DNA of 64,000 nt from a phage (GCA_024613925.1 GCA_024613925.1_4713.1); one strand, 5' to 3'; positions 15,778 through 31,458 are shown, numbered from the stretch's first letter. Numbers and translations: made by a program. The notes: generated from the letters alone by a model not told the origin.

Positions 15778-15809
15778 CCTTCCTCCAACCCAACAGGGAA
15801 GGAGGAAGG
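15778..15809 (-). terminator. intrinsic terminator, CCTCC/GGAGG-arm hairpin family
   Basis: ccttcctcc-aacccaacagggaa-ggaggaagg; minus strand continues GGTTTATGTTTGTGTTTATT; 15 nt downstream of the stop of 15824..16723. Confidence 0.7.
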
Positions 15810-15823
15810 GGGATTAATTAAAA

Positions 15824-16723
15824 TTATACGGGAGCGTAAACGTTATAACCGAATACGGCTTTACCGTAGGTGTGAGTACCGTCAGCTAACGACAGCACCA
15901 GCACATTGCCGTACGTAACGTTAACGCCCTTGTCGGTAGACTCGAGGGTATCACCGTTATAGACAAAGGTAGCTGTTTGCAGATTGGCTTTCAGTTCATT
16001 AATGATATCATCACTTACACCAGTCTGTTCTTTGATCAGCGTAGTCAGGTTACCTGCCAGGCTTGCATCGATCTTGGTGTCGTTACTGGTAATAGCTTGT
16101 AAAGCTACAGTGTAGGTGCTGAAGTCTAACGGATAGGTTAACAGACGTGCTGACGTTTTGGTACCATCGCCTTCATCAACGTAGGTTAAGTTACCCAGGT
16201 TGGTAACCTTGATGATGTTAGCCAGATCCAGCGTGGTGTTATAAACTTTAACTTGAACAGAGCCATACCACGCCAACGAATCTTCTTTGGCTTCCAGGGT
16301 GATCGTCTGGATACCATGCTCGTCGAAGGTAACCGGCGTAGTTAACGTTTCGGCTTTGATGTCTTTATCTTTATCCAGGAACTTCTCACCGGAAGGTGTG
16401 ATCATACCGTAGCGTTGAGCTACAAGGTCAACCACGTCACCAATAGTGGTGTTCGCATTAACGTTAACACGTACGGCGATCTTCTGGAACCACTTAGCCA
16501 GATCCAGACGATGGTAGGTAACATCGCGTTCATTGAAGTAAGGGGTACCTTCACCTGGGCTAAGCGTTAAAGTTGCTTCTGGAGCAGAAGGATTCTTTTC
16601 TTTAAGGACGTATTTAAGGTCGGTGTATTTGAAGCTGGCACCAGTATCGGCGTTGAGTTTGTTAATCTCATCAACGATAAGTTGCCATGGTGTTTTTAAA
16701 GTAAGCGATACTTGAGCTGTCAT
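15824..16723 (-). CDS. paralog family A member (P1), probable abundant structural protein
   Basis: 299 aa; shares ordered motifs with 27780..28685, 29602..30453, 30464..31399 and 16766..17407 (Y.HRLDLA, LAWYGSV, C-terminal GNVLVLSLADG). Confidence 0.55.
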   Translation of the reverse strand: MTAQVSLTLKTPWQLIVDEINKLNADTGASFKYTDLKYVLKEKNPSAPEATLTLSPGEGTPYFNERDVTYHRLDLAKWFQKIAVRVNVNANTTIGDVVDLVAQRYGMITPSGEKFLDKDKDIKAETLTTPVTFDEHGIQTITLEAKEDSLAWYGSVQVKVYNTTLDLANIIKVTNLGNLTYVDEGDGTKTSARLLTYPLDFSTYTVALQAITSNDTKIDASLAGNLTTLIKEQTGVSDDIINELKANLQTATFVYNGDTLESTDKGVNVTYGNVLVLSLADGTHTYGKAVFGYNVYAPV

Positions 16724-16765
16724 TTTCTACCTCTATGGTTGTTACATCACTCTCAAAAGATGTAA

Positions 16766-17407
16766 GTGTTTACAGAAATTAATATATTTTATATTAGTGT
16801 GAATAGTATGGAGAACGACTCCGAATCTCCTTTTCGACCATCAAAAATCAGAGGACACATAATCATGGCCTTAGACTTTAACAAAGCAGCGAAATCCCTT
16901 CTGCTTGATCTTATCAACACCAAAGCAACCCGTGCACTGTCCGAAGAAGAACTGCAGTTCGGTACTCCGCAGACGTCTTCCGAACATTCTAAGAACACCG
17001 TTATTCAGCTGGACGCTGCGCCTGAAGCAGCTAACCTGCAGGGTAGTCAGCAGTTCTACTACGATCGTCTGGCTCTGTCCGAAGTTTTCGCTGATGTAAC
17101 CGGCGATGTTACTTTCGAACTGCCGCACGGTACCGACAGCATCCAGGCTTCTGAACTGGTAAGCAAGCTAGTCACCAAATTCGGCCTGGCTTCCCTGACC
17201 GGTGAAATCCAGGAAGAAACCTTCCAGCTGTCTGCAGGTACTGTTGGTCAGGTAACCCTGACTGCGATCGAGGGTGGCATGGTATATACCGGCACTCTGC
17301 AGGTTGCACTGACCTATGCAGCAGCACCGAAAGACCAACTGGCAACCGTTCTGGCGGATAACGTAGCTGATGGCTTCGTGAAACCGACCGTTAGCGCTGT
17401 TGGCTAA
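16766..17407 (+). CDS. paralog family A member (P2, short form)
   Basis: FYYDRLALSEVF and MVYTGTLQVAL motifs; likely true start MALDFNKAAK (about 16865), giving about 180 aa; divergent from P1. Confidence 0.5.
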   Translation: MFTEINIFYISVNSMENDSESPFRPSKIRGHIIMALDFNKAAKSLLLDLINTKATRALSEEELQFGTPQTSSEHSKNTVIQLDAAPEAANLQGSQQFYYDRLALSEVFADVTGDVTFELPHGTDSIQASELVSKLVTKFGLASLTGEIQEETFQLSAGTVGQVTLTAIEGGMVYTGTLQVALTYAAAPKDQLATVLADNVADGFVKPTVSAVG

Positions 17408-17606
17408 TAAGCACATAGAGCAATAGTATGGGTTTTGTACAGCTCGGCTATTGCTCTTCTACAATTTGGTTGTAACAATCTGCGTGGTTGCACGCTTATC
17501 TTTCTCATTGAGCGCTTCGTATGAAGCGCGGTGTTGAAAGGGTTGTGGATCTCCTCAAGCGGCCAGGGACCCAGACCAACCTGAATAAACACGAACACCT
17601 GTTAAG

Positions 17607-17655
17607 CCCCTCCTCATCCGTTATTGGGTGAGGAGGGGTCTTATACGTCTTTATG
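17607..17655 (+). terminator. intrinsic terminator (13-bp stem, 6-nt loop, U-rich tail), plus orientation
   Basis: cccctcctcatcc-gttatt-gggtgaggagggg followed by tcttatacgtctttatg; same arm composition as the minus-strand hairpin family. Confidence 0.7.
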
Positions 17656-17701
17656 CGTTCCGTTCGTTCTGGAGCGTTTTAGGACGGTTTACGGCGGGGT
17701 T

Positions 17702-18337
17702 TTACTCAACACTGAACCCGTTCAAACGAATAGCTTCATAACGCTTACGTTCACGACGTTTACGTGCCTGCCAACCGTAGATGAATTTCTCGTCTTTCTC
17801 ACGACGTTCAGCTAATTCGATGTAGTAAGTGCTCTGCATATCCAGCATCGCGTCGATGAGATAATCTTTACCGGTTTCTCCGCGTTTAGCGATGTAAGCG
17901 TCGAGTACGCCTAACGTCGCAGGTCCCATCAAACCGTCGGCGTTGATATCTTTCCAGTAAGTTTGACGGTTGTTCATGACGTTAAGGTAACGCTGGAGGT
18001 TCTTAACCGCAACCGTTTTACCTGCATTGATACCCAGGTCAAAGAGACGGTCAGCTAAGAACACAGAACGTTTCATGACTTCATCAAGCTTCATCTTATC
18101 CCAGAAGTGAGTCTTGTAGATAAAGAACGCCATTTCCGTGGTAAGGTTACGCATGTTACCGTCCCACCCGAATTTCGTTTTCAGTGTGGTTTTGTATTGT
18201 TCCGCCAAAGCTTGCGTCACGCCGTGGTTTGTGATTCCGCCCGAATCATCGGGATCGTCGACGTAACCTGCTTCGATGCTAGTTTTGTCACGAATTATGA
18301 ATTCGCAGGTAAAATCTTTTTCTGTAATCTTAGCCAT
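17702..18337 (-). CDS. GH108-family lysozyme-like peptidoglycan hydrolase
   Basis: N-terminal IEAGYVDDPDDSGGITNHGVTQ matches the E-G-Y-x-D-P-x-D-x-G-G-x-T-x-x-G-(I/V)-T core of GH108 lysozymes; 211 aa. Confidence 0.6.
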   Translation of the reverse strand: MAKITEKDFTCEFIIRDKTSIEAGYVDDPDDSGGITNHGVTQALAEQYKTTLKTKFGWDGNMRNLTTEMAFFIYKTHFWDKMKLDEVMKRSVFLADRLFDLGINAGKTVAVKNLQRYLNVMNNRQTYWKDINADGLMGPATLGVLDAYIAKRGETGKDYLIDAMLDMQSTYYIELAERREKDEKFIYGWQARKRRERKRYEAIRLNGFSVE

Positions 18338-18437
18338 TAGAACTCCTCGTTGGAATAACGATTTAGAGGAACTGGAAGGGTCTAGAACGCGATAAACGAT
18401 TTAATCCAGGCAAACCCCAGGTTAAACTTTTCTAAGC

Positions 18438-18449
18438 GTTACAACGCGT
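18438..18449. promoter_or_regulatory. 12-bp perfect palindrome CGTTCTAGAACG, with a related half-site about 45 bp upstream
   Basis: read directly in the leader region of the lysozyme-like gene; operator-like symmetry. Confidence 0.35.
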
Positions 18450-18463
18450 TCTAGAACGTTGAA

Positions 18464-20512
18464 TTAAATACCCTTGGTTCCTTTCACGTGATGTGCGATT
18501 TCTTCAACCATTGCACGCAGAGCACGAAGCTGTTGGTCGTGTTCGTACCAACCGCCTAACAGAACCCCGCTATACACCATGGTGTCAAGACTTAACAGCC
18601 CTTTATCTGATACGTTGATCATTTCAGGGAACTGTTCTTGAACACGCTGTGCAATAACACCGATCTTCTCGACATCAGGATCGTAGTTGTGACGGAAACG
18701 GGCAAGCCCACTGCGTGCCATTTCACGTAAACGATCGCTAAGAGATTCTGGATGATCTTTCAGATAACGGATGTCATGTTTACTACGCTCGTCTGAACGG
18801 ATGTAAGCGTTAGGGACATCGATGTTGCTGTTGAAGTACAGCGCGCTACCACCACCTGCAGAGTTCCCCCAATAGAAGCGAGTGATCTCACCGCCACCAT
18901 TCTCCGTGATGATAACATGTTTACCTAAACGCGTACCACCATTACCATCAACGAAGACCAGTTTGTTTCCGCTGTAAGAACCCCAGAACAAGCGCGTATC
19001 GATGATGTGCGTTGCAGCGAGACGGGCGTTACGTGGTGTAGAATACACGGTGTTAACATCTTGCTGAGCATGTGCATCGGAAGCGATACCATAGTTCTGT
19101 ACGTTACCCAACCCAACCTGCGCTTTCGTAACAGCGTGAGGGTTGTCTCGACGGTTAGCGTGAGCGTTAACCAGATCGCCCGCTAATTTCTGAATTGCCC
19201 AGTTGGTAGACTGCGGTGTCATGTAACGGTTAGTTGCAGAACCACCTTGCGCTTCAGCTTGGTTAGCGGTTGGATAGTTCTCAACACTTCCTAACCCTAC
19301 TTGTGCTTTAGACACTTGGTGTGGGTTATTCTTGTCAGCGATGTGTGCATTAAGCGGAACTAACGCAAAGGTCTCAATGGACGCTTTGGTTGTGTTCGGT
19401 GCCATTAATCGGTTAGCTGCAACCCCGGCACGCGCTTCTTCTTCAGAAGCCATCGGATAGTCTTGCACATTCCCTAATCCCACCTGGGCTTTCGTTACCC
19501 TGTGTGGGTTGTTATAATCGGCTTTGTGTGCATTAAGTGGAATCAATGCGAACTGTTCAATTGCTGCAACGGTACGTAGCGGTGTCATGAAACGGTTGTT
19601 CGCTGTTCCGGCTTTCGCCTCGTCATCCGAAGCAGTCGGGAAGTTATCAACGTTCCCAAGGTTAACCTGCGCTTTGGTGACGCTATGCGGGTTATCCCGA
19701 CGGTTAGCGTGCGCATCGACTAGATCGCCCGCCAGTTTAGCAATCGCCCATCCAACCGTTTGTGCGGTCATGTAACGGTCAGGTGCGGTACCGGCTTCTG
19801 CCTCCGCCTTGTTGGCGGTAGGATAGTTCTGTACGTTACCTAGTCCGACTTGGGCTTTTGTTACTTCGTGCGGGTTATCGGTACGGTTAGCATGCGCGTA
19901 ATGCAGATCGGTCAGATCTTTATCCGCTGCTTGCATATCTTTGCGTAGCTGATCGATTGCCGCCCAGAGACGGTTATCGGATGCAGCATCACCGATAAGT
20001 ATTGCGGCTTTCAGTGAATAGATCGCTAAGCAAAGATGTTCGGTACCGTAAATAGCACTAACGTGGTGGATGTGTGGTTCAGGCGGATAAAGTTCCGGTT
20101 TGTTCTTGATGTCATCCCAGTTGATCGGACGATCGTCAAGTTTGAGTTCTTCGATAGCCTGATATAACGCGTCAATAAGGCTTACGTAAACGCCACCGAT
20201 GATGCGATAGTCGTTAACTAACGTCCCCTCGATATCATCGTTGATAATGGCGATCGCCGCACAGATTTCTTTACCCGCGTAAAGCGTTGCATCCTGATAC
20301 AAGAAAATGGGTTTATAATCCACGCCTCGTACCAGTGTCTTACCGGTAAGCTTTTCAGTGATGACCAGACTTTCGGTGAAGAACGGTCCGCCATCGAGGG
20401 CGTAACATTTATTCTCGGTTCGTGGAACGGTGTGCTCTTCACCAACGATGTGGTTGCTATCGAGCGTGCCGGTCCAGTCCTCGGGGTACTTCAGGGTAAT
20501 TGGTGTTGACAT
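18464..20512 (-). CDS. tail fibre protein with about 61-aa repeats and C-terminal S74-type intramolecular chaperone domain
   Basis: five repeats of N-P-H-x-V-T-K-A-Q-V-(G/N)-L-G-N-V-x-N-(Y/F); C-terminal S-D-E-R-S-K (Ser-Lys dyad pattern of auto-cleaving fibre chaperones) and GVLLGGWYEHDQQLRAL. Confidence 0.7.
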   Translation of the reverse strand: MSTPITLKYPEDWTGTLDSNHIVGEEHTVPRTENKCYALDGGPFFTESLVITEKLTGKTLVRGVDYKPIFLYQDATLYAGKEICAAIAIINDDIEGTLVNDYRIIGGVYVSLIDALYQAIEELKLDDRPINWDDIKNKPELYPPEPHIHHVSAIYGTEHLCLAIYSLKAAILIGDAASDNRLWAAIDQLRKDMQAADKDLTDLHYAHANRTDNPHEVTKAQVGLGNVQNYPTANKAEAEAGTAPDRYMTAQTVGWAIAKLAGDLVDAHANRRDNPHSVTKAQVNLGNVDNFPTASDDEAKAGTANNRFMTPLRTVAAIEQFALIPLNAHKADYNNPHRVTKAQVGLGNVQDYPMASEEEARAGVAANRLMAPNTTKASIETFALVPLNAHIADKNNPHQVSKAQVGLGSVENYPTANQAEAQGGSATNRYMTPQSTNWAIQKLAGDLVNAHANRRDNPHAVTKAQVGLGNVQNYGIASDAHAQQDVNTVYSTPRNARLAATHIIDTRLFWGSYSGNKLVFVDGNGGTRLGKHVIITENGGGEITRFYWGNSAGGGSALYFNSNIDVPNAYIRSDERSKHDIRYLKDHPESLSDRLREMARSGLARFRHNYDPDVEKIGVIAQRVQEQFPEMINVSDKGLLSLDTMVYSGVLLGGWYEHDQQLRALRAMVEEIAHHVKGTKGI
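19010..19900 (-). repeat. in-frame tandem repeat array (5 units of about 185 bp) inside the tail fibre gene
   Basis: recurring ...gtgnggGTTnTc...cggttagcgtg... at DNA level and NPHxVTKAQVGLGNV at protein level; boundaries approximate. Confidence 0.6.
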
Positions 20513-20525
20513 AACCTGGAGGTCC

Positions 20526-23120
20526 TTATAACGTGACTGTACCTAATTTGGTTGTCTTATTGAGATTAATGACAGAGATCTGGGTATCGCTGGTCGTAAT
20601 CGTTCCGATATTAACGCGCTGTCCTTTATCATCCTCTTGCTTATGGATGGTTAACTCCAGCTCTAGCTGGTCACCGTTAGGAACAACGGAAACGTACCAT
20701 GTTTTATTACCTGGTGAGCTATTATAGTTTTTTAGGTTATAATGGCCTTTAGGTAAGGTCATGGCCTTACCGGCAAACAAGCAAGTGATGTCTTCGTTGA
20801 TGTAGATATCGTAACCGGAAGCAGCAACGACCGTAGAAACCATGTAGACATGTTTGACGGTACCTGCGAGGTATTCGGCTACGCTTGGCCCATATGCTCT
20901 GAATACCTGTCCGCCATTGGATAAACGGTACGCTTCCCCAAGGTCAACGTACCCCAGACCCCATACCGGATGGACGTTGTAACGACGTCCGCTGCTGGCC
21001 AAATACTCATAAAGCTCATCTACCGATAACCCAACCCACGCACCACTGGCGTTCTTAGCACCACGGAATTGAAAATCGTTTGCGTTTCCTGGAGTAGCAA
21101 CGCGCACGGACATCGCCCCGGCGATTAACCAGCCATCAGCGCATTTACGATACCCTAATGGTCCCCACGCCCCCAGAGTGTTATCAATGTTATTGATTTG
21201 GTCCCGAGGCGTGTAAGTTACCGTTGTGACGACCCCCGTTACGGTAATGTTCCCTTCCCGAGCGCTAGTCGTTACTTCAGACGTCATGATAGCCGCCTTC
21301 CTGGAGACAGGATCGTACACCGATATGAACATCAAGCAGGGGGCCCCTGTGGACGCTGGAGGAACCACGATAGAGCCGCGTATAACGGAGTATCTCTCAA
21401 GCTTCGGCGACGTGTAGGTATCCCAACAAAGTTTGGCCGCTCTGTCGAGTTCTGCCTGCGTGATGCTTATCGATGCCCCCTTTAAGGCTAACGTATCAGG
21501 GTCGACCTCAACCCTGCTGCTTAATCTCCCTTCCTGTAACCAGCTACCAGTCACTATCGTCTGGTCGTCGCTCATGTGAATTGTCGCGAAACGTTCGCTC
21601 ACTGAACCGCCTACGTGGACGCGACTGGTTGGCGGGAATCCCGTCACATCGACCACGCTGTTCTTATAGCGATAACTCAAATCCCAATCAGTGGTTATTA
21701 ACCGCTTTTCGAAATTGCTCTGACCCCCTGGGATGCGGGATAAGACATAGACCTTGTTCTTCGCCGTGAAGCCAACGAAGCCGTGTGGACCACAGGACCC
21801 AACAACGCGGTCCATGATGTTAATCCAGCCCCCCACCTCGTACGCGGATATTGGGGTGAGTTTCGCAAGTTCGTCGAAGACATTACCAGCGTAGTCACCA
21901 ATGCGATACGATCGAACCATCGGCGAGGCCAGGTTATCATTCACACAGCTGGTAACCAGACCGTCCTCGCGAATGACCATGTTCCCGGTAAGGTTGCCCC
22001 CACCCCATGCCCAGAATCCGTCTTTATAATCACGGTCACGAGTTGACATCGTACAAGGGCCACGAAAGGACACCGAACCATCGGAGTTCACTTGTAATGA
22101 CGGCGTTCCAGCATTGGGACTTAATGTCCATTGCTTCGTATCCAGGTTCAAATCGACGTACCAGATCGTTGTCCCCTGATCGGCGATATTCGCGGTACTG
22201 TTAGTGTACCATGCCGTCGTACAGTAGATTCGCGCAATGTTACCTCTTACAACAGCGTAATTTCTAACACCCGCACGAATAGGGATAAGCGTCGTTAATT
22301 GACTAGGGTACGCTGTATGGTTTAACACTTCCCAGAAAAGAATATGGTCGAGGTTAGTTTTCGTCGTTCCCTCAAAAATCTTTCCACTAAACCCGGTTTC
22401 TTTGGTGAACTGTACAGCCGCACCATTTTTAATGTCCGATAACATACAGGTATGTACATCGAGTCCGTTTTTCCCTTCATGCGCCCACCAGACTAACAGG
22501 TACACTTTGTTTTTGTAGACGAACGTACTACAGCGCGCCATGCTGTCGGTAATACCCTCTACCGACCCGGTACACATGGCGGCGACATGCTTCTCTACGT
22601 TGAATGTGCCGTTAGTCAGAACGATGTATGGCTGTGTGTTCTCGTCGTTTTCGTCCATCGCGACACCCATCATCACACCGTGGTTATGACACCAGACCGA
22701 TTGTGGGATTTTAGGTAGTGCTGTAGGGTTGTACTGGCGACTGGTACCTATGGCGGTATCGAGCAGCCCTTCACCATTGTTTTTACAGATAGCGTAATAC
22801 ACCCCGTTTTTCATGCTGTTGGATGCAGAGCGAAGGATGGAAACACTCCCGTCTGCTTCCTGACAGATTCCGTAGGTACGACGTTCGGTCATGGCTATCG
22901 CGCCATCAGCTGACCCTTCGATGGCGAGAGGGAAGTAACTTTGATCGCCAATTTGTTCGATATCGGTTACGTCAATATCAATGTACTTTTCCATCTCGGT
23001 GTTGAACTCTGCAGTGCTGTACGCGCCGAGATCGCCAGCCTTTAACCCTGTTGGATTGCTTCGACTAGCGATACGTTCGGTAACGCTGGTCACCAGTTCG
23101 CTAAATTTTTTCATTGCCAT
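20526..23120 (-). CDS. large tailspike-like or fibre-associated protein
   Basis: 864-aa ORF embedded between two fibre genes; Gly/Ser/Thr/Asn-rich composition typical of receptor-binding proteins; no specific catalytic motif recognised. Confidence 0.5.
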   Translation of the reverse strand: MAMKKFSELVTSVTERIASRSNPTGLKAGDLGAYSTAEFNTEMEKYIDIDVTDIEQIGDQSYFPLAIEGSADGAIAMTERRTYGICQEADGSVSILRSASNSMKNGVYYAICKNNGEGLLDTAIGTSRQYNPTALPKIPQSVWCHNHGVMMGVAMDENDENTQPYIVLTNGTFNVEKHVAAMCTGSVEGITDSMARCSTFVYKNKVYLLVWWAHEGKNGLDVHTCMLSDIKNGAAVQFTKETGFSGKIFEGTTKTNLDHILFWEVLNHTAYPSQLTTLIPIRAGVRNYAVVRGNIARIYCTTAWYTNSTANIADQGTTIWYVDLNLDTKQWTLSPNAGTPSLQVNSDGSVSFRGPCTMSTRDRDYKDGFWAWGGGNLTGNMVIREDGLVTSCVNDNLASPMVRSYRIGDYAGNVFDELAKLTPISAYEVGGWINIMDRVVGSCGPHGFVGFTAKNKVYVLSRIPGGQSNFEKRLITTDWDLSYRYKNSVVDVTGFPPTSRVHVGGSVSERFATIHMSDDQTIVTGSWLQEGRLSSRVEVDPDTLALKGASISITQAELDRAAKLCWDTYTSPKLERYSVIRGSIVVPPASTGAPCLMFISVYDPVSRKAAIMTSEVTTSAREGNITVTGVVTTVTYTPRDQINNIDNTLGAWGPLGYRKCADGWLIAGAMSVRVATPGNANDFQFRGAKNASGAWVGLSVDELYEYLASSGRRYNVHPVWGLGYVDLGEAYRLSNGGQVFRAYGPSVAEYLAGTVKHVYMVSTVVAASGYDIYINEDITCLFAGKAMTLPKGHYNLKNYNSSPGNKTWYVSVVPNGDQLELELTIHKQEDDKGQRVNIGTITTSDTQISVINLNKTTKLGTVTL

Positions 23121-23132
23121 TATTCACCTCAG

Positions 23133-23618
23133 TTAAATCGGCGAATCAGGTAATTGACCATCGACAATCTCGATAGTGGCCACTTTACGTGTCGCAGCAA
23201 GATGCGCTGTGCCCTGAACTTTGTTCCAGGTACCGATACGCATCACGTTTTTATAGCTGCTGTTACTGTCGCTCAATGTGTAAACAAAACCGTTATCCGT
23301 GACAGCAAGATAGATCCAACCGGTTGATGCGCTAACACCAGAAACATCCAACGTGGTCGCGGGAACCGTTCCTGTTATCGTGTTGTATTCCGCTTCACCT
23401 TGGCCGATGCTGATCCTCCCGTTGTTGTAGCTGGCTGCTGGAATTATTTTATTTCGGCTGAAGAAAAGGAACGGAAGATAACGTTGTGTAACAAGAGGCG
23501 TAAGTTTAGGAGCCACTTCTGTCTTAGCGTACACGTTTGTCTGCGTCGTTGTTACTGAATGAGGATTCTTCTTGGCCAGGTAGGCTCCCCATTCAGAAAG
23601 CAATGTCGATAACTTCAT
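23133..23618 (-). CDS. small fibre-like protein (possible distal fibre tip)
   Basis: 161 aa; N-terminus KKNPHSVTTTQTNVYAK resembles the NPH-VT-AQ fibre repeat. Confidence 0.4.
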   Translation of the reverse strand: MKLSTLLSEWGAYLAKKNPHSVTTTQTNVYAKTEVAPKLTPLVTQRYLPFLFFSRNKIIPAASYNNGRISIGQGEAEYNTITGTVPATTLDVSGVSASTGWIYLAVTDNGFVYTLSDSNSSYKNVMRIGTWNKVQGTAHLAATRKVATIEIVDGQLPDSPI

Positions 23619-23622
23619 ACGG

Positions 23623-24138
23623 CTACCCCATGTAACGTTTTTGGCCGAGGATAAAGACCTTGTTAAGGACCACCGAGGTAATGCCTGACGCGTTGCAACT
23701 CACCTGCCCAACACGAATAGCTGTTGATGAATCAGCCCCAGCACTACTGTTCCAACTCCAGCCGACCGACCCACCTTTCTGATGAATAAACAGATATCCG
23801 GTTTTGTTTGCCCAGTCGGAAGTAAGATTTTTGATGTCTAGCGTTCCTTTCGCCAGAATATAGTCGGTACCGGCGATCATGACGGGGATTTCAGGATACG
23901 AGATTACCGTACCGCTAGCAGTAACATTGCTGATGCGATCACTACGGATATCGGTACAGTCACCGAAATACGCTACGGGGAGTATCCCCTTAGGGAGCTT
24001 TTTGCCGATTTTCGTATCGACCGTGCTTTTATCGGGTGCGTCGATTTGCGCTGCAGTGACTTGGTTGGGGTTATCCTTCCTTGTGTACCATGTCGTCATG
24101 CGAGCACCCAACTCACTCATTTTTGTGCCCATTTTCAC
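23623..24138 (-). CDS. small fibre-like protein (possible distal fibre tip)
   Basis: 171 aa; N-terminus RKDNPNQVTAAQIDA resembles the fibre repeat. Confidence 0.4.
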   Translation of the reverse strand: MKMGTKMSELGARMTTWYTRKDNPNQVTAAQIDAPDKSTVDTKIGKKLPKGILPVAYFGDCTDIRSDRISNVTASGTVISYPEIPVMIAGTDYILAKGTLDIKNLTSDWANKTGYLFIHQKGGSVGWSWNSSAGADSSTAIRVGQVSCNASGITSVVLNKVFILGQKRYMG

Positions 24139-24166
24139 GTCCTATCGAAAAATAAAAAGATGGAAA

Positions 24167-24183
24167 GGTGGGTAGAACCCACC
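24167..24183 (-). terminator. short hairpin with minus-strand U-tract (probable terminator after the fibre gene)
   Basis: ggtggg-tagaa-cccacc; minus strand continues TTTCCATCTTTTTATTTTTCG. Confidence 0.5.
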
Positions 24184-24189
24184 CATCCG

Positions 24190-26343
24190 TTATAACGTTT
24201 CGAAGTCTTTTGCCTTGATGACCGCGTTGAAGTTGGCAAGGAATTCCTTAAGTAATGCTTGGAAAACATCGCGGAACGCCGCGTTCGTCTTCAAGCTGGT
24301 TAAATAATCGTTCTTAAGGTAATCACTCAGCTTACCGATCTTCTGCATCTTCTCGCCGTCTTGGTTCTCTCCAGGTTCTTGGCTGTTGATGTTAACCCAT
24401 TTGATCCCTTCGAGATCGCCATCGGCAAGGAAGTTAGCGGGTGTCTCATCATCGTTCAGGATTTTAATTGTATCACTGGATTCAATGCCGCCGTAAGCTT
24501 CCAGAAGCTGGTTGATGGTCAACTTATTGACGTTGATTGAACCATTGACACCATCGATAACGATGCCTGCACCTGTGATAGACGTTGCTGAAAGATCGAT
24601 TGGTCCGGTTAACTTACCCCCATTGATAGGGAGCGCACCGACTTGTTCGGCTGTGTGCGTATGATCGGCTAACGCCGCGAACGCTGCAATCGACTTGTAA
24701 GTCGAGTACGGTGTCATGTACGCTGTCTGGTTAGTCCTGTCAGCAGCTTGCACATCGGTGGCGACAGCAAAGTCCTGTACGTTCCCTAACCCCACTTGTA
24801 CCTTGGTTACTTCATGCGGGTTACTCTTATCGACAACGTGTGCTGCAAAACCATCACCTGCTAAAGCGATGATCGCTGCTTTTGTCGCAGCCGGTGTCAT
24901 ATAGCGGTTGGTCGCTACACCTGTTTGTGCTTCCACATCAGAAGCAACGGGATAGTTCTCAACGCTTCCCAACCCCACCTGCGCCTTGGTGACCCTGTGT
25001 GGGTTCTCGGTATTTGCGATGTGGCTACTGAACCCCTGACCAGCCATTTGCTCGATTGCATAACGAACAAGTATTGGTGTCATGTACTTGTTGTTAACCT
25101 GACCGTCGATAGCTTCTTGGGTAGTAGCAACCCCAAAGTTCTGCACGCTTCCCAGACCGACTTGGGCTTTGGTCACCCCATGTGGGTTGTTGGTGTTACC
25201 GATATGTTCGGTTACGGTTGGGGTGATTAACGCTGCGATGGCGGCTGCTGTGGTTGCAGGCGTCATGTATTTGTTGTTAGCAACACCCGCACCGGCTTCT
25301 GTGTTAGATGCTAAACCAAAGTCCTGCACATTACCTAACCCAACTTGGGCTTTGGTCACCCCATGTGGGTTGCTCTTGTTTCCGGTATGGGCTGTCAGCG
25401 AAGCATTAACGTTATCGATACGCGTACTTAAGCCATCAGTGATTGCTTTGATTGCTGCTCGTACACCCGCTGGAGTTGTGTACAGATTAGTGGCCGTACC
25501 GGTAATGGTTGCATTACTATCGGCTACACCGTAGTTCTCAACGTCCCCGAGTCCCACCTGGGCTTTGGTCACCTTGTGTGGGTTGTTGCGGTTACTGATG
25601 TGTGCGGCGGCACTATCACCACTAAGGTTAGCGATCATCTTACGCGTCATCGCCAACGTCATGTACAGATTTTCACCAACGGTTTCCAGATCGCTCTCGG
25701 TCGCTGTTGTGAAGTTCTGCACGTTCCCCAACCCAACCTGGACTTTCGTAACGCCGTGGGGATTATCGCGTCGATTCTCATGCTGCACTAACGCAGTCAT
25801 TGCTTTATTGAACCCTTCTTCAAGCGGTTCTTTCAATGATTCGATTGCCGCCACCACATCGTCCCACGTCATTGTGTCGGTTTCGACATTATGTTGGTGG
25901 TTGATTGGTGGGAATACGGAAGGAACGTCAGCAACCTTTTCCCAGAACGTAATGCGGGGGTCGTAGAGGTTGTTGGCTAAAACGTTAAGAATTTGTTGTT
26001 GATCAAGTGTAAACTCACCCCCCAGTGAATAGTAGTTCAGTTGCAACTGTCCACTGAATGCGGTGTCCAACAGCATGATGGAACCGTATAATTCCAGGCC
26101 GGTCAGCGCAGCCATGGCACGGAAGGGGTGAGTGCATAAAAAGTCAACGCCTTCTTCCAGATACGCGTTTGTTTCAGGGTTGTAGATCTTTAACCCATTA
26201 CGAAAATATGGCGCGTATTTAGGAACGAGAAAGTTAAATCCGGTCCCCGTGGAAGGACGGACAGTGACGAGTTCTTCTGGAACCCATGCGCCATCCAAAT
26301 TCCCCTGCGGGTTATACGGAAGGCGTTTAATTTCATCTGTCAT
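24190..26343 (-). CDS. tail fibre protein with NPH-VTKAQVGLGNV repeats
   Basis: 717 aa; at least 7 repeats of N-P-H-(G/K/R/E)-V-T-K-(A/V)-Q-V-G-L-G-(N/S/D)-V-(Q/E)-(N/D)-(F/Y), the same repeat type as 18464..20512. Confidence 0.7.
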   Translation of the reverse strand: MTDEIKRLPYNPQGNLDGAWVPEELVTVRPSTGTGFNFLVPKYAPYFRNGLKIYNPETNAYLEEGVDFLCTHPFRAMAALTGLELYGSIMLLDTAFSGQLQLNYYSLGGEFTLDQQQILNVLANNLYDPRITFWEKVADVPSVFPPINHQHNVETDTMTWDDVVAAIESLKEPLEEGFNKAMTALVQHENRRDNPHGVTKVQVGLGNVQNFTTATESDLETVGENLYMTLAMTRKMIANLSGDSAAAHISNRNNPHKVTKAQVGLGDVENYGVADSNATITGTATNLYTTPAGVRAAIKAITDGLSTRIDNVNASLTAHTGNKSNPHGVTKAQVGLGNVQDFGLASNTEAGAGVANNKYMTPATTAAAIAALITPTVTEHIGNTNNPHGVTKAQVGLGSVQNFGVATTQEAIDGQVNNKYMTPILVRYAIEQMAGQGFSSHIANTENPHRVTKAQVGLGSVENYPVASDVEAQTGVATNRYMTPAATKAAIIALAGDGFAAHVVDKSNPHEVTKVQVGLGNVQDFAVATDVQAADRTNQTAYMTPYSTYKSIAAFAALADHTHTAEQVGALPINGGKLTGPIDLSATSITGAGIVIDGVNGSINVNKLTINQLLEAYGGIESSDTIKILNDDETPANFLADGDLEGIKWVNINSQEPGENQDGEKMQKIGKLSDYLKNDYLTSLKTNAAFRDVFQALLKEFLANFNAVIKAKDFETL
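24710..25775 (-). repeat. in-frame tandem repeat array inside the second tail fibre gene
   Basis: recurring ccccatgtgggttg / ccttgtgtgggttg DNA units at about 180-bp spacing; boundaries approximate. Confidence 0.6.
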
Positions 26344-26375
26344 GATGCGCCCTTTACAAGTTGTTAGTAAGTATG

Positions 26376-26393
26376 GGATACCCTGGGGTATCC
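26376..26393. other. 7-bp-stem hairpin (ggatacc-ctgg-ggtatcc) in the divergent leader region
   Basis: read directly; lies between the starts of 24190..26343 (minus) and 26448..27728 (plus). Confidence 0.35.
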
Positions 26394-26447
26394 TGTGTTA
26401 ACAGCGGTAAAATATTACTGTAACTATAAAATAAGGGGGCCTCTCCC

Positions 26448-27728
26448 ATGTATACATTGGTAAAAACTTACGGGTTACCCGTAGGTTCTGGCACGGCCTG
26501 GACAGCGCTTGAGGCGGGTGAAAGTGTCCTGAGTACGTTGTTCTCAACGTATCAAAAACTCAAGATCCAGGTCCATGAAAGCTATGCTGACCAGCAACAA
26601 GTTATTGATCTGTACACATTTCAATCCGAGCTTCAAAACAGCAGTGATACGCTCAATGCGTGGTTGAAAGCGAAATCGGATGCACATACCAACCTTCGCG
26701 GACAGCCTGGTGAGCTGTCGATTAAAACTCACAAGCTTTATTGTCATGACGCTATTACGGTAGGCTTTCTCCCTAAAGTCGGTAATAGCGGTTATCATCC
26801 GAGCAATGCGATCCCTGAGTCGGAACGCACTGATATCCTGTTGACGAAAGCGAATACGAATTACGAAAATATCGGCAAACACTGCTTGTTCACCGTAGGC
26901 GGTTATGTTCATCCTCACGTCTACGGTAAAGACGTTGGTGTCTATATCCAGGGTGGGTTCAAGACGGCACAGCGTAGCCAAGAAAACGATATCGGCATGA
27001 TTGATTTTAGCCGTATCGGGAGTTTGGAAATTCATGCTATCACAGAAGAGATGATTGCTGATTCCACGAAGCTCTTGCCGTATAAGGACGAGATGTACTT
27101 GCGGTTACCGCGCAAGGTCGCCGAAGATGAAACCGTCGCGCTGGTGTTCGGGGGATATTTACATCTTCTTGACGATTGTTACACGATCGTTAGCGACACG
27201 ACAGCGAAAATAAACTGCATTAACATGTTTCTCTATGAACGATACTTCCGTTCCCGCAAATACCTTGATCTAACATCTCTTGGTATTCTGTTGAACGAAG
27301 AAGACCCGCAGTCCGACATTGTTGCCAATCGTTTATTGTCCGATAAAGCATTAAAAGCGTGGGTGACGCATCCTTGCAGTTTCTGGGTGTATATCAAAGC
27401 AACATCGATTCAGGTTACGCAAGAACCTTTACCACGAAGTGGCGTACCAGGACAGTATTTCTTAGGTAAGAAACCGGAAGGACTGATTCGAGCCGATCTC
27501 GGCGAGTTACCGGCTTACGTACAGACCTATGAAAAACCGTTATGGGTACTTCACTCGCGCTGGGGACTTCGTAAGAACATGTTGTTTGAAAATACGTTGT
27601 ACAAACATACGCGCGTTAAGCGGCTTAACGATACGCCTTATCTTCACCAGGTCTGGTTGGAAACGCATGCGACGTTGCAGACAGTACACAAGCTCGAATT
27701 GATCGATTCCAGTCAGAAAAACAAATAA
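26448..27728 (+). CDS. hypothetical protein
   Basis: 426-aa ORF; SD-like aagggggcc upstream of ATG; followed by hairpin 27739..27770. Confidence 0.5.
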   Translation: MYTLVKTYGLPVGSGTAWTALEAGESVLSTLFSTYQKLKIQVHESYADQQQVIDLYTFQSELQNSSDTLNAWLKAKSDAHTNLRGQPGELSIKTHKLYCHDAITVGFLPKVGNSGYHPSNAIPESERTDILLTKANTNYENIGKHCLFTVGGYVHPHVYGKDVGVYIQGGFKTAQRSQENDIGMIDFSRIGSLEIHAITEEMIADSTKLLPYKDEMYLRLPRKVAEDETVALVFGGYLHLLDDCYTIVSDTTAKINCINMFLYERYFRSRKYLDLTSLGILLNEEDPQSDIVANRLLSDKALKAWVTHPCSFWVYIKATSIQVTQEPLPRSGVPGQYFLGKKPEGLIRADLGELPAYVQTYEKPLWVLHSRWGLRKNMLFENTLYKHTRVKRLNDTPYLHQVWLETHATLQTVHKLELIDSSQKNK

Positions 27729-27738
27729 CCAAACATAA

Positions 27739-27770
27739 CCCTCCTCCAACCCAACAGGGAAGGAGGAGGG
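27739..27770. terminator. CCTCC/GGAGG-arm hairpin between convergent genes (probably bidirectional terminator)
   Basis: ccctcctcc-aacccaacagggaa-ggaggaggg; convergent gene ends at 27728 (plus) and 27780 (minus). Confidence 0.6.
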
Positions 27771-27779
27771 AATATGCTG

Positions 27780-28685
27780 TTATGCTACATATAACGTTAG
27801 ATAACCATCGATGAGCGTATTCATCACACTAAGTTGAAGTACGACGGCTTTACTAACATCCGTACGCACGCCAAACGGTAGTGTTTTGAATTGCTCTGGA
27901 TCGGCTATTACTCTCGCATTCTGCAAGTTGAGTGGTCCAGGCATTGCTGACAGTACCCAGCGATCGTTGACCGTAAGACCGTCGATCTCTTCAGAGAGAC
28001 CCAATTGCAGCATGTTCATTTCTGCAATTAGTGCCTCCGATTGCGTATCACCTGAGGTTAACGTATAACCATCGGTAAGTGATGCCAGAACACCAGCAGA
28101 TACGAACCAGTTGTACGAAACAATAGCGCCTGGGAGTTTACTGCTATCTCGATCGATGATATAATTCAACCCAGCCAACATATTGTTGCGAACGAGGTTG
28201 TTGAGGTCGTTATGTCCTGAGGTTAACTCAACAAGTAACTGACCAACCCATACTTGGTTACCGGGTTTAGGTGTTATCACAACCTGTATCGGTGACTTGG
28301 ACTTATCCAGATCCGCGTCGACAATCTCGGTTTTGTTGAGAAGGATACCGTACGTCGATGCTAAGACAGGTAGGATCTCAGAAACCTTGGTTAATGCATC
28401 TAAGGTTTCGATCTCGATAGGCCAGCGGTGCTGTCCGCCAGACCAAGTACCCAGTTTACCAAGATCGATGCGGTTATAATAGATGTCGACAGAGTTCACC
28501 AGCCCTGAACCCGGTTGGGGATGCACGGTTAACTTGCTGTTACGCTTGTACCCTGTGCTTTCAGAAGCCTCACCGATAACCAGTTTATCCAGCGTTACGC
28601 CTCGAGCATCGAAATCGCTATGCTTTCGAATCAGCCGAAAGAGGATTTCTTTCGATTCTAACCCTAGGATTTCACTGTACTCCAT
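27780..28685 (-). CDS. paralog family A member (P3)
   Basis: 301 aa; motifs YKRNSKLTVHP, IYYNRIDLG, LPVLASTYGILL, DRWVLSAM shared with P1, P5 and P6. Confidence 0.55.
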   Translation of the reverse strand: MEYSEILGLESKEILFRLIRKHSDFDARGVTLDKLVIGEASESTGYKRNSKLTVHPQPGSGLVNSVDIYYNRIDLGKLGTWSGGQHRWPIEIETLDALTKVSEILPVLASTYGILLNKTEIVDADLDKSKSPIQVVITPKPGNQVWVGQLLVELTSGHNDLNNLVRNNMLAGLNYIIDRDSSKLPGAIVSYNWFVSAGVLASLTDGYTLTSGDTQSEALIAEMNMLQLGLSEEIDGLTVNDRWVLSAMPGPLNLQNARVIADPEQFKTLPFGVRTDVSKAVVLQLSVMNTLIDGYLTLYVA

Positions 28686-28700
28686 TTAACACCCCTTAGG

Positions 28701-29585
28701 TTACGGTAGGATTTCTGCGCCCGTCGGGCCTGCCTTACGAGCTTCCAACGCACCAAGGTCGTATTTCAGTGTCAGCGTATCGTTGGTGGTATAAAGGTTG
28801 TGGTAAGTCGAAATCAGATCGGTAACCTGCGCGCCGACGATTTCGTTCATGTCGAAGGTAGAACCTTGACCATCATCAGCACGAACGATTTTGTCACCAG
28901 CAGAGACCATCCCAATTTCAGAAATAACCGCGTACTCTTCGCCACCTTCGGTGAGTTTAGCCACATTGAGATATTCGTTAATATCCCACGGCGTCCAAAC
29001 CAAAGAGACTTTACAGCTGTAGTCGTAGTACTCCCCGGTCGCTACCAGAATTCCGGTTGTTGGAATATCCGGTCGGGCGGGGTTGAGGTTCGCGTCGGTT
29101 GGATGCCATTCGATGGTCTGAGCGACGCCGTCGACGTATTTGGTATAACGCATGGAGCGGACAACGTTATCGAAATCGATGCGACGACCGTAATAACAGA
29201 TATACTTTTTACCGCTTTCCAGTGTCTCAATACGACGTAACCCAAATCTAGCGCGTTCGTCCGTGGTCAAATCGTTACCAACTTCACGCATCACGAAAGG
29301 CTTGATTTTCCACGGTGAAAGATCGCTTGCTTCGTGAGCGATCGGCATCGAGGAAGGGATACCGTTAGCGTTGCGGATGAATTCATGACCTTGGTTGCCG
29401 ATACAGAAGTAACGTACAGCAGGATTACCCTCGGGGTAAACCTTTGATTGAATCTGAAGCTTTTCATTCAAGGTGCTGTGTTCTTCCCACGCATGAGGAA
29501 GACCGAGCGTAAGGTTAGTTTGTACTTGACCGCCGATAATCGTACGGACGATACGATCGGTAGCACGGATTTGTGTAGAAGCCAT
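28701..29585 (-). CDS. hypothetical protein (possible distant family A relative)
   Basis: 294 aa; only a YYGRRIDF-like motif is shared with the family; embedded in the paralog array. Confidence 0.45.
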   Translation of the reverse strand: MASTQIRATDRIVRTIIGGQVQTNLTLGLPHAWEEHSTLNEKLQIQSKVYPEGNPAVRYFCIGNQGHEFIRNANGIPSSMPIAHEASDLSPWKIKPFVMREVGNDLTTDERARFGLRRIETLESGKKYICYYGRRIDFDNVVRSMRYTKYVDGVAQTIEWHPTDANLNPARPDIPTTGILVATGEYYDYSCKVSLVWTPWDINEYLNVAKLTEGGEEYAVISEIGMVSAGDKIVRADDGQGSTFDMNEIVGAQVTDLISTYHNLYTTNDTLTLKYDLGALEARKAGPTGAEILP

Positions 29586-29601
29586 GTCTTTTCCTATTTA
29601 A

Positions 29602-30453
29602 TCAGTTATATTGCATCAACAGGATACCGCCGTAGTTCGTGCAGTAATCTTGGCTAAGCGTAACGATAACAGCGTTAGCGAACGCTGGGTTAACAGGATA
29701 ACCCTGTGCGATAAGTTCTGTTGTTTTACCGGTCGCGAGCACGGTGGCTCCGTAAAGGTTGTTTTCATCTTCACGGCCGTTATACACCCACGGGGTTGGC
29801 GCAACGTTGTTGAATAAGCTAACCAATGCGCTTAAGTTACCACCAACTTTTAACCCAGCAAGATCGGAACGGATCGCTGTACAGTCTATGGCGTAACTGT
29901 AGACCAATGCCTGGATACGATTTGCGGTGTAGTACGGGAAATTGAGACCGGTCATCACCGTGGTCTTCATCATCCCCGCAATATCGTGGGCACTATCGAG
30001 GAGATAGAACGTAACACTTCCCGTCCAGGCCAATCCGGTTGTTTTCAACTCTACGGTGTGAGGGAACGGATATTCATCACCTCGTACAATCGGAGAATCG
30101 ACGCAGCTATCCTGATCGATAACGATACCGTACGTTGATTGAATCAGAGGGATAAGATCGTGCGTCGTTTTAACCCCGGCATCGATAGCAAGCTTCGGTT
30201 CCATTCCCAAGAAGAAGTCTTGGATAGGAATACGATCGTACCACACGTAGCTGCTTTCGCGGTATTGTGCTGGTGTTACTGTTGCCGAAGGCGATACCTT
30301 AGCGCGTGTGTTCCGTTTATACGCATGGTTTCCGTTTTCAGCAACGTCCGTGATATCAAGTGCATCGAAGTTAAAGTCGAAGTCAGGATTGGCTGTCTGA
30401 ATAAGTTCAGCGACCAGTACTTTAGGACTTTTGTTTAACAATTTCTGACTCAT
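29602..30453 (-). CDS. paralog family A member (P5)
   Basis: 283 aa; motifs YKRNTRAKVSP, VWYDRIPIQDF, LAWTGSV, PTPWVYN, QDYCTNYGGILL. Confidence 0.55.
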   Translation of the reverse strand: MSQKLLNKSPKVLVAELIQTANPDFDFNFDALDITDVAENGNHAYKRNTRAKVSPSATVTPAQYRESSYVWYDRIPIQDFFLGMEPKLAIDAGVKTTHDLIPLIQSTYGIVIDQDSCVDSPIVRGDEYPFPHTVELKTTGLAWTGSVTFYLLDSAHDIAGMMKTTVMTGLNFPYYTANRIQALVYSYAIDCTAIRSDLAGLKVGGNLSALVSLFNNVAPTPWVYNGREDENNLYGATVLATGKTTELIAQGYPVNPAFANAVIVTLSQDYCTNYGGILLMQYN

Positions 30454-30463
30454 TGTTTATTCC

Positions 30464-31399
30464 TTAGCCTTGTTCTTCTGGAGAACGACCCTGGAGGCTT
30501 GCGGTATGTCCGTCGACATTGTAATAGAAAATCAATGGACCGCCAACGGCAGTACAGTAGTTTTCATCCAGACTGATCTCGATACCGTATTGGTAACCTG
30601 CTCTTGCTGGAATACGTCCGCCTAACTCACCGTTGAAAGCCACTTTAGCATTATACAGGTTATACGGTGCGGCGTTGTCGTCTAATACCCAACGGTCGGT
30701 AGTCATTTCAGCCAGAAGATCGGCGACCACCACATCGCTAATAACGGTACCTGTTACCAGCGAAGCCAGCAGTTCACCGTAATCAGAAGTATCACGACTG
30801 TAACTGTAGATCTCGCCGCTAGCGCGTACGCCTTGACCGAAGAACTTAAGACCATCCAGCTCTTTGATCGCGATAATATCATCAAGATTCGGTACACGCG
30901 ACTTCATCAAGATACGAACGCTCCCCGTCCAAGCCAGGCAGCTAGATGAAACACGAAGCAATTGTCCGTTAACGGTATCCCAGCTAAGTTCGTCGTTGAC
31001 GATTTCTTCCGCGGTAAGGCCAAGACCGAAACGTTCTTTGATGATAGGCCAGATATCACGCATCTTGGCGGCGTCTGGCGCATCGATAAGAATAGGCGCT
31101 ACGTTACGCAGATACGCACCGATGTTAATACGATCGTAATACAGCGTCGTCGAACCTTCATAATCGTCCAACTCGGTAAGCTTAGCGGTTGCTGTCGCCG
31201 TAATCTGGGTGTCGCGCTCGTAGGCGCTTTGGTTGGTGGTTGGTGTTCCTAAAACCAATAATTCAGGGGTTAGAACATGCTCTCCGTTCTGAGGTGGGTT
31301 ATCGTGGTTGATAAGACCATACACGAGATCGGATGAGGGTAAAGAGACGTCGACCGGGTAAAGTTCGGTGTCGTCAATAGTTGTTACCGTATCACTCAC
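30464..31399 (-). CDS. paralog family A member (P6)
   Basis: 311 aa; motifs LYYDRINIG, LAWTGSV, TDRWVLDD, DENYCTAVGGPLIF; GTG start with AGGAGG 5 nt upstream. Confidence 0.55.
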   Translation of the reverse strand: MSDTVTTIDDTELYPVDVSLPSSDLVYGLINHDNPPQNGEHVLTPELLVLGTPTTNQSAYERDTQITATATAKLTELDDYEGSTTLYYDRINIGAYLRNVAPILIDAPDAAKMRDIWPIIKERFGLGLTAEEIVNDELSWDTVNGQLLRVSSSCLAWTGSVRILMKSRVPNLDDIIAIKELDGLKFFGQGVRASGEIYSYSRDTSDYGELLASLVTGTVISDVVVADLLAEMTTDRWVLDDNAAPYNLYNAKVAFNGELGGRIPARAGYQYGIEISLDENYCTAVGGPLIFYYNVDGHTASLQGRSPEEQG

Positions 31400-31458
31400 G
31401 GTGACCTCCTCGCCGGGAATTAGATAAAAAAGACTTTACGATTTGCTGCGCTATCACG

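Follow-up and report, generated by a model that had tools for sequence, protein, structure and literature searches.

What are the repeated, related genes that lie on both sides of the tail-fibre genes of a large phage, and what do their products do? The question is raised by positions 15,824 to 31,399 of a stretch of phage DNA of 64,000 nucleotides (GCA_024613925.1), called the window from here on. The initial annotation, made from the sequence alone, had placed in this region a paralogous family of five members, with a possible distant sixth, and had read it as a possible uncharacterised adsorption or fibre-attachment system. The five genes are DUF7941 virion proteins of a Goslar-type chimallivirus. 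The observation is real yet partly mis-specified, and its interpretation is broadly right but has already been published for a nearly identical phage. The system is not uncharacterised: it is already known as Pfam DUF7941 and PHROG 1037, it is the "paralog family B" of phage SPN3US, and it is the topic of a 2026 preprint on phage Goslar. What is new here is a split of the family into two arms, the conserved gene order, the conservation of the gp22 linker, and the tandem arrays and lectin or immunoglobulin (Ig) fusions found among its relatives.

Bases 15000-32000 of the window share 93.5% nucleotide identity with Escherichia phage vB_EcoM_Goslar over 88% of their length, with the same order and orientation. 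Goslar, of the Chimalliviridae, is a jumbo phage of 237 kb that forms a nucleus. The six open reading frames (ORFs) of the initial annotation were all found at the coordinates given, and those at 15824, 16766/16865, 27780, 28701, 29602 and 30464 correspond to Goslar gp22, gp23, gp31, gp32, gp33 and gp34 in the RefSeq annotation. Between the gp22/gp23 group and the gp31-gp34 group lie the endolysin gene gp24, the fibre-like genes gp25-gp29, and gp30. The source phage is an isolate separate from Goslar; its gp22 and gp23 carry many amino-acid changes, and the neighbours gp26 and gp21 are for the most part replaced, with identities of 52% and 62%. The five family genes, direct orthologues of the Goslar genes in the same order, are the following, with the ratio of nonsynonymous to synonymous substitution rates (dN/dS) calculated against Goslar:

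15824..16723, minus strand: gp22-like DUF7941 protein, 299 amino acids; Pfam E 4e-50; 87% amino-acid identity to Goslar gp22; dN/dS 0.42
16865..17407, plus strand: gp23-like short DUF7941 protein, 180 amino acids; Pfam E 4e-21; 91% identity to Goslar gp23; dN/dS 0.52
27780..28685, minus strand: gp31-like DUF7941 protein, 301 amino acids; Pfam E 7.5e-56; 99% identity to Goslar gp31; dN/dS 0.06
29602..30453, minus strand: gp33-like DUF7941 protein, 283 amino acids; Pfam E 6e-48; 98% identity to Goslar gp33; dN/dS 0.06
30464..31399, minus strand: gp34-like DUF7941 protein, 311 amino acids; Pfam E 1.7e-63; 98% identity to Goslar gp34; dN/dS 0.06

That these five proteins form one family is borne out by BLASTP, by Pfam, by profile and iterative searches and by predicted folds. 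In pairwise BLASTP the gp33-like and gp34-like proteins match with E 4e-20 and most of the remaining full-length pairs with E 1e-10 to 5e-10; the short gp23-like ORF matches two members (E 4e-7 and 1e-6), its comparisons with the other two not being significant. All five match DUF7941 (PF25613) with E 4e-21 to 1.7e-63 and with scores of 171 (15824), 76 (16766), 190 (27780), 164 (29602) and 215 (30464) bits, the gathering threshold being 27 bits, and all five match PHROG 1037/2935, "virion structural protein". A hidden Markov model (HMM) built from the five retrieves those five and no other among the 446 six-frame ORFs of the window. With jackhmmer on the same set, four of the five queries retrieve all members and no outsiders; the gp22-like query did not retrieve the short gp23-like ORF.

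The ordered motifs by which the family had been recognised exist in a looser form than was described. Relaxed cores (Y-x-R-[IL], [YF]-G-[ILM] and [WY]-x-G-[STQ]-[VL]) are common to all five proteins in the same order, but the strict strings occur in only none to three of the five: YKRN[TS]..V.P as written is in none, and YKRNT or YKRNS is in two. The near-invariant columns of a family alignment of 122 sequences (Y70, R72, G154, G257 and G287 in gp22-like numbering) are the centres of those same motifs. The patchy occurrence of the strict strings, together with the two pairs involving the short ORF that BLASTP alone leaves below significance, could be taken as a sign of chance resemblance between unrelated ORFs. 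However, this reading is refuted by the Pfam E-values and by the profile and iterative searches, the predicted folds of the gp22-like and gp31-like proteins are related, and the probability left to it is negligible; the shared motifs are not due to chance.

Two members of the original set need correction. The ORF given as 16766..17407 is a family member, but its start more likely lies downstream. The most likely start codon is the ATG at 16865 (180 amino acids) and not the GTG at 16766 (an ORF of 213 amino acids that begins 99 nucleotides further upstream), because the first residue of the longer ORF that the Pfam match covers is 38, the annotated Goslar gp23 has 180 amino acids, and an AGAGGA ribosome site precedes that ATG. 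The ORF that had been put forward as a distant member belongs to another family:

28701..29585, minus strand: gp32-like DUF7208 baseplate spoke subunit; Pfam PF23838 E 3.2e-96; 98.6% identity to Goslar gp32

This protein has no significant similarity to the five in BLASTP or phmmer, scores E 1.7 with the family HMM, and has no match to DUF7941 in Pfam. Its gene also qualifies the description of three tandem copies: the gp34-, gp33- and gp31-like genes do lie in one string, but the DUF7208 gene interrupts it.

The Goslar preprint (April 2026; Basu et al., bioRxiv 10.64898/2026.04.21.720040) lists ten DUF7941 proteins (gp22, 23, 31, 33, 34, 86, 91, 92, 93 and 161), reports that purified gp22 forms filaments seen by negative stain, and gives head-to-tail dimers or oligomers of DUF7941 proteins predicted with AlphaFold 3 (AF3). 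Carbohydrate-binding, glycoside hydrolase or leucine-rich repeat (LRR) domains are present in gp86, gp92 and gp161, and a baseplate-anchored "fiber cloud" for host recognition is proposed, labelled as speculative by its authors (bioRxiv 10.64898/2026.04.21.720040). By mass spectrometry, the copies per Goslar virion are about 2144 for gp23, 577 for gp22, 112 for gp33, 27 for gp34 and 8.5 for gp31, the range for the last being about 6-13 (bioRxiv 10.64898/2026.04.21.720040 Table S4), and gp23 is the most abundant virion protein left unmodelled (bioRxiv 10.64898/2026.04.21.720040). The gp22-like protein is thus the orthologue of the high-copy filament-forming subunit of Goslar, the gp23-like protein that of its most abundant member, and the gp31-like protein that of its lowest-copy member. 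The Goslar properties (virion incorporation, copy numbers, gp22 filaments and head-to-tail oligomers) should carry over to the proteins of the window, and their identity of 87-99% to the orthologues leads us to infer incorporation into the virion at high copy in this phage too. The suggestion that these genes encode abundant virion or host-interaction proteins fits the published Goslar copy numbers and filaments; a role in adsorption is a proposal of the literature.

The predicted structures point to a modular protein. The AlphaFold2 (AF2) model of the gp22-like protein, made with the 122-sequence alignment, has a predicted local distance difference test (pLDDT) score of 95.3 and a predicted template modelling (pTM) score of 0.72, and has three parts: residues 1-162, approximately, form an alpha/beta N-terminal domain, residues 163-190 an extended linker and residues 191-299 a C-terminal domain. 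In the model of the gp31-like protein (pLDDT 91.8, pTM 0.59) the secondary-structure elements follow in the same order; the lower confidence of 73-80 in the linker and the pTM suggest two domains with a flexible relative orientation. The gp23-like protein has the N-terminal domain and the linker, lacks the C-terminal domain, and matches positions 4-174 of the 276 of the DUF7941 profile. In a Foldseek search of the PDB, the gp22-like model matched the N-terminal domain of PhiKZ gp127 (9xqd_0, E 3.1e-6, target-normalised template modelling score 0.62, 161 columns), with no further match at E <= 0.001. The family profile matches PhiKZ gp127 in PDB 9xqd over its full length (E 3e-17); a single-sequence PDB search with the gp34-like protein gave no match, gp127 being reached only with the profile. 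Among the predicted viral structures of BFVD, the gp22-like and gp31-like models match the same 80-odd proteins, and all the named ones are from chimalliviruses (Goslar, RAY, PhiPA3, EL, PhiEaH1, Eowyn, Moabite and Phabio).

No part of gp22 is more conserved than the linker: its mean entropy over 57 orthologues is 0.15, that of the N-terminal domain being 0.40 and that of the C-terminal domain 0.50, as would be expected if the linker is a docking element. A homologue search by word index, made with the family alignment, gave nearly only gp22 orthologues, and the diversity of the family came from an exhaustive search of representatives. At 50% identity, DUF7941 falls into about 2200 clusters. 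Of the 148 top representatives, 110 consist of one full-length module, 6 are short forms and 20 are tandem arrays of two or three modules; fusions to Laminin_G_3, Ig, He_PIG, SPRY or glycine-rich domains occur in several. Such covalent tandem arrays have the look expected of a head-to-tail polymer whose subunits have become fused, and the fused domains are of kinds typical of adhesins. When genomes were searched with the gp34-like protein, 124 records gave matches, at 1-10 places per genome; among the matches listed, all genomes are of 197-322 kb. According to a 2026 paper on a Spiroplasma genome (PMC13375240), DUF7941 is present in three Spaid-like proteins, secreted or of the membrane, and also occurs in further Spiroplasma species, contradicting the claim of the Goslar preprint (bioRxiv 10.64898/2026.04.21.720040) that the module is exclusive to chimalliviruses.

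The DUF7941 genes lie within a peripheral-baseplate module. Besides the spoke gene, two neighbours outside the family belong to it:

26448..27728, plus strand: gp30-like protein, homologue of PhiKZ gp130, outer peripheral baseplate; phmmer match to PDB 9xqd_L (PHIKZ130) E 2.8e-24
31459..33870, minus strand: gp35-like baseplate wedge, 803 amino acids if the start is as in Goslar; PDB 11lx_Bh (Goslar) E 0

The gp30-like protein is 100% identical in amino acids to Goslar gp30, and the gp35-like protein matches PhiKZ gp128 (9xqs_C) with E 1.5e-110. The gp32 protein forms six spokes that join the inner and the peripheral baseplate, and its structure in the Goslar virion has been solved (PDB 11lx, 11pb, 36za). 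The gp32-like protein matches these entries with E 2.5e-200 and PhiKZ gp139 (9xpg) with E 1.5e-42, and is of the same fold family as both; gp139 is also present in 9xqd. In PhiKZ, a band of five gp139 dimers ends at one gp127 per star lobe, in the outer baseplate (PMC13250141). By analogy, the gp32-like protein is a likely docking partner of a DUF7941 member.

Gene order, conserved in four lineages, tells a similar story. The order portal (divergent), wedge, DUF7941, DUF7208 is gp36/35/34+33/32, followed by gp31, in Goslar; gp81/82/83/84 in SPN3US, where gp83 and gp84 are the DUF7941-DUF7208 pair after the wedge; and, from the wedge onward (the portal lying outside the comparison), gp7/8+9/10/11 in Erwinia phage RAY. 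PhiKZ keeps gp129/128/127+126, its DUF7208 gene (gp139) being elsewhere. By tblastn positions, DUF7208 also lies beside a DUF7941 match in FBKp24, PhiEaH1 and vB_ParM-25, and it is single-copy in 260 jumbo-phage records. The gp34-like gene occupies the position of PhiKZ gp127, RAY gp8 and SPN3US gp83, immediately after the wedge gene; its product scores 130 bits against RAY gp8 and finds its best SPN3US match in gp141, and the best RAY match of the gp33-like protein is gp9.

PhiKZ gp127 and gp126 (PDB 9xqd) are among the nearest known counterparts. They belong to the same family, share the N-terminal fold in the case of gp127, and are encoded directly after the wedge, as are gp34 and gp33; gp127 caps the band of gp139, the counterpart of gp32, in the outer baseplate (PMC13250141). 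They differ in having only about 20% sequence identity. The Goslar preprint counts at least three DUF7941 members in PhiKZ, compared with ten in Goslar, and no high-copy filament subunits have been reported for PhiKZ. The identification of gp127 as the orthologue of gp31 or gp34 was considered and dropped, its best score being to the gp22-like protein (32-34 bits) and all scores being too low to decide.

Taken with the copy numbers, these observations lead to the mechanism that we favour with moderate confidence: at the baseplate's periphery, the gp32 spoke carries a cap made of at least one of the low-copy paralogues, and from this point gp22 and gp23 grow by polymerisation into long, flexible filaments that help the phage to meet its host. 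Each protein has a globular N-terminal domain, a conserved linker and a globular C-terminal domain, the last absent from the short gp23-like form. Head-to-tail polymerisation is the most likely mechanism; in the "fiber cloud" model, the linker would dock on the neighbouring subunit's N-terminal domain. The gp34-, gp33- and gp31-like proteins, encoded around the spoke gene, would be baseplate-proximal caps or adaptors sitting at the outer end of the gp32 (DUF7208) spoke, in the way that PhiKZ gp127 sits on gp139, and the gp22- and gp23-like proteins would be the bulk filament subunits extending outward. Together with members of the family that bear lectin or LRR domains and whose genes lie in other parts of the genome, the filaments would raise the chance of host contact. 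Here we infer the identity of the anchoring paralogue, the attachment to the baseplate in this phage and the use in adsorption.

Each part of this mechanism has its own grounds. Polymerisation is favoured because the linker is the most conserved segment, because tandem arrays occur naturally and because gp22 filaments and AF3 dimers have been reported for Goslar. The link to the baseplate is favoured because the neighbours are baseplate proteins, the gene order is conserved and the gp139 band of PhiKZ ends at gp127. A division of labour is favoured because copy numbers and dN/dS both split, and a role in host recognition because of the fusions to Laminin_G_3, Ig, SPRY and He_PIG and the domains of Goslar gp86, gp92 and gp161. 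Chaperone-usher pili, in which part of each subunit binds or completes its neighbour's globular domain, so that long thin filaments arise that can bear adhesin domains, offer an analogy of mechanism only: no relationship of DUF7941 to them was seen in sequence or, by Foldseek, in fold, and no chaperone or usher is involved.

The split within the family shows in the substitution rates. At comparable dS (0.10-0.16), dN/dS with respect to Goslar is 0.42 for the gp22-like and 0.52 for the gp23-like protein and 0.06 for the gp31-, gp33- and gp34-like proteins, whose constraint resembles that of the baseplate proteins gp30, gp32 and gp35. The family divides into the low-copy, strongly constrained gp31/33/34 and the high-copy, fast-evolving gp22/23, and the division by dN/dS parallels those by copy number and by genomic location.

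Several points weigh against the favoured mechanism. The dN/dS contrast rests on a single pair of genomes. PhiKZ gp127 is nearest in sequence to the gp22-like protein (32-34 bits) and not to the gp34- or gp31-like proteins, so that the assignment of the anchor rests on gene position and copy number only. The Goslar baseplate maps contain no density for any DUF7941 protein (bioRxiv 10.64898/2026.04.21.720040), no adsorption phenotype has been reported, and PhiKZ gp143, a member according to the Goslar authors, behaves as a non-essential holin regulator. Finally, tailless particles of SPN3US contained members of the family, among them the abundant gp141 and gp160 in over 300 copies, and these proteins were assigned to the head (PMC5105663, PMC5694885), which does not fit filaments anchored at the baseplate only.

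The SPN3US family deserves a closer look. "Paralog family B" was described in 2016-17 with 17-20 members, the high-abundance ones being gp141 (32.6 kDa) and gp160 (18.5 kDa) (PMC5105663, PMC5694885). It comprises gp83, gp138-154, gp160/161 and gp237 and belongs to the same Pfam family: in the gp138-gp153 array, nine of the ten genes tested match PF25613 (E 8e-68 to 4.5e-22), gp153 having no Pfam match, and gp83 matches with E 4.9e-14. As in the Goslar type, there is one high-abundance member of about 32 kDa, one of about 18.5 kDa and many of low abundance. SPN3US differs in having about 20 members, most of them in one long tandem array, and in their assignment to the head from tailless particles.

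On this basis the gp22- and gp23-like proteins could be associated with the head, inside the capsid or bound to it, possibly as ejection proteins, as was proposed for SPN3US family B. Purified tailless 64(am27) particles proved to contain SPN3US gp138-154 and relatives, which are DUF7941 proteins, and the estimate for gp141 and gp160, which bear the label "Head ejection?", exceeded 300 copies per capsid (PMC5105663, PMC5694885); PHROG 1037 and 2935 are filed under "head and packaging", and the Goslar baseplate density is assigned to none of these proteins. However, PhiKZ gp127 has been modelled in the outer baseplate, the high-resolution model of the Goslar capsid does not contain these proteins, and the lectin and Ig fusions suggest an external role. 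Older "head" labels are also fallible, PhiKZ gp128, a "structural head protein", being the baseplate wedge by cryo-electron microscopy (cryo-EM), and self-assembling filaments could co-purify with heads. These last two points weaken the evidence from tailless particles, although they do not dispose of it, and a location in the head is considered improbable. In the PhiKZ record (NC_004629, 128154-130328) it is the RefSeq note of gp128 that reads "structural head protein", in spite of the cryo-EM structure (PDB 9xqs); gp145 and gp146 carry similar labels, and the head and tail labels of this record can be unreliable.

A further reading would be that the two arms are functionally distinct, the conserved low-copy arm of caps or adaptors being encoded with the wedge and spoke genes and the fast-evolving, very high-copy arm being attached not, or not only, to the baseplate. 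This is unlikely, if somewhat less so than a location in the head. If it were true, the findings in tailless SPN3US particles would be genuine, and the filaments would serve as a coat or tether of the head or neck, or as a mesh associated with the virion.

The filaments might also be real and serve mainly for something other than adsorption, as a matrix. Virion "bouquets" are part of chimallivirus biology and the source of this idea; the filaments could organise such bouquets inside the cell, or stabilise a very wide peripheral baseplate. The gp22 filaments are known in vitro only, the role in host recognition is labelled speculative in the Goslar preprint, and gp22 and gp23 carry no recognisable binding domain, none having been found in Pfam or, for the gp22-like model, by Foldseek against the PDB. 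Nonetheless, the elevated dN/dS of gp22 and gp23 and the carbohydrate-binding and Ig-like fusions fit an exposed, host-facing role better, and a matrix as the main role is judged about as improbable as a place in the head.

The position of the short gp23-like gene, convergent with the endolysin gene at 17702-18337, raises a further alternative, namely that its product is a cytoplasmic regulator of lysis timing and not a structural subunit. PhiKZ gp143 (177 amino acids), encoded between the holin gp142 and the endolysin gp144, alters the triggering time of the holin and is non-essential by transposon sequencing, and it is listed as DUF7941 in the Goslar preprint (bioRxiv 10.64898/2026.04.21.720040). 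However, gp143 matches DUF7941 only marginally (18.3 bits, below the 27-bit cutoff; hhalign probability 1.4%), whereas the gp23-like protein is a clear member with 76 bits and its Goslar orthologue is present at about 2144 copies per virion, and the Goslar annotation has no holin or spanin gene beside gp23. Since phmmer also gave 0 bits between the gp23-like protein and gp143, the identification as a gp143-type regulator was rejected, and a role in lysis timing is very improbable.

The regions between the genes were described in the initial annotation as carrying a strong terminator after each copy and, for the divergent pair, a shared leader. Just three of the family's genes have a hairpin at their end, the one after the gp23-like gene being weaker; the gp34-, gp33-, gp32- and gp31-like genes are spaced by 10-16 nucleotides and have one common hairpin after gp31. 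The pair is indeed divergent, but what separates it is an intergenic region of 141 nucleotides and not a shared leader. The elements are:

15776..15809, minus strand: terminator-like hairpin after the gp22-like gene; -24.5 kcal/mol, z-score -5.9, followed by a U-rich tail
16724..16864, no strand: divergent intergenic region between the gp22-like and gp23-like genes, 141 nucleotides, sequence read directly
17417..17457, plus strand: weaker hairpin just after the gp23-like gene; -19.5 kcal/mol, z-score -3.2, poor U tail
17603..17643, both strands: strong bidirectional hairpin in the space between the gp23-like gene and the endolysin gene convergent with it; -33 kcal/mol per strand, z-scores -5.2 and -6.0
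27737..27770, minus strand: terminator-like hairpin ending the gp34-gp33-gp32-gp31 string; -31.4 kcal/mol, z-score -5.7

The sites equivalent to 17603..17643 and 27737..27770 are annotated as terminators in Goslar. A consensus terminator scan missed these hairpins, their loops being longer than 8 nucleotides; they were located by reading and folding the sequence. The copies at 15776-15809 and 27737-27770, downstream of two different DUF7941 transcription units, are a 34-nucleotide element with CCTCC stems and the loop TTCCCTGTTGGGTT, 94% identical to each other, which may be a genome-wide type of terminator of this phage. The 141-nucleotide region presumably holds the promoters of the two high-copy members; it contains no strong match to a sigma-70 promoter, as expected of a phage with its own RNA polymerases. 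A motif TA(A/T)CTATAAAATAA(G/A)G at 26421-26453, upstream of the gp30-like start, is repeated at 34299-34331, near 34.3 kb, and may be a phage promoter element. Positions 14989-15823 are 835 nucleotides with no ORF of at least 40 amino acids, unannotated in Goslar too; within them, 15530-15700 (minus strand) folds into several hairpins (-54.5 kcal/mol, z-score -4.3) that match no tRNA or Rfam family, and the tRNA and Rfam scans of the whole window gave no match.

Divergence from Goslar comes in patches. The gp26-like ORF (20526-23120, minus strand, 864 amino acids) has 52% identity to Goslar gp26, compared with 93-99% for the flanking fibre genes, and about 1.9 kb of its DNA, especially 20846-22781, cannot be aligned to Goslar; it looks like a swapped module and a candidate determinant of host range. 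The gp21-like gene (14206-14988, minus strand) encodes a product with 62% identity. The dS to Goslar is 0.72 for the gp24-like endolysin gene (17702-18337) and 1.25 for the gp27-like gene (23133-23618), compared with 0.06-0.20 for most neighbours. This mosaic divergence suggests recombination patches of different ancestry. The fibre-like gp25-like and gp29-like genes have in common repeats with a period of 183 nucleotides (61 amino acids), in 4-6 copies each (19075-19933 and 24688-25770, respectively), which encode a recurring NPH.VTKAQVGLGNV.

The value of the window is mostly in annotation, since five "hypothetical" genes and their neighbours become a peripheral-baseplate and filament module. 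What remains of interest is the two-arm structure of the family and the site at which the filaments attach, for which the Goslar preprint proposes the baseplate and the SPN3US work assigned the head. If the two arms are distinct, the role of the high-copy arm could reach beyond adsorption, for instance to the organisation of virions inside the cell or to shielding. Chimalliviruses rank among the foremost candidates for phage therapy and serve as models of phage cell biology, yet little is understood of how they find and bind their hosts. If DUF7941 subunits, in their thousands per virion, do build micron-long filaments, these phages would possess an unusual, high-investment adsorption device, which would also be a target for the engineering of host range.

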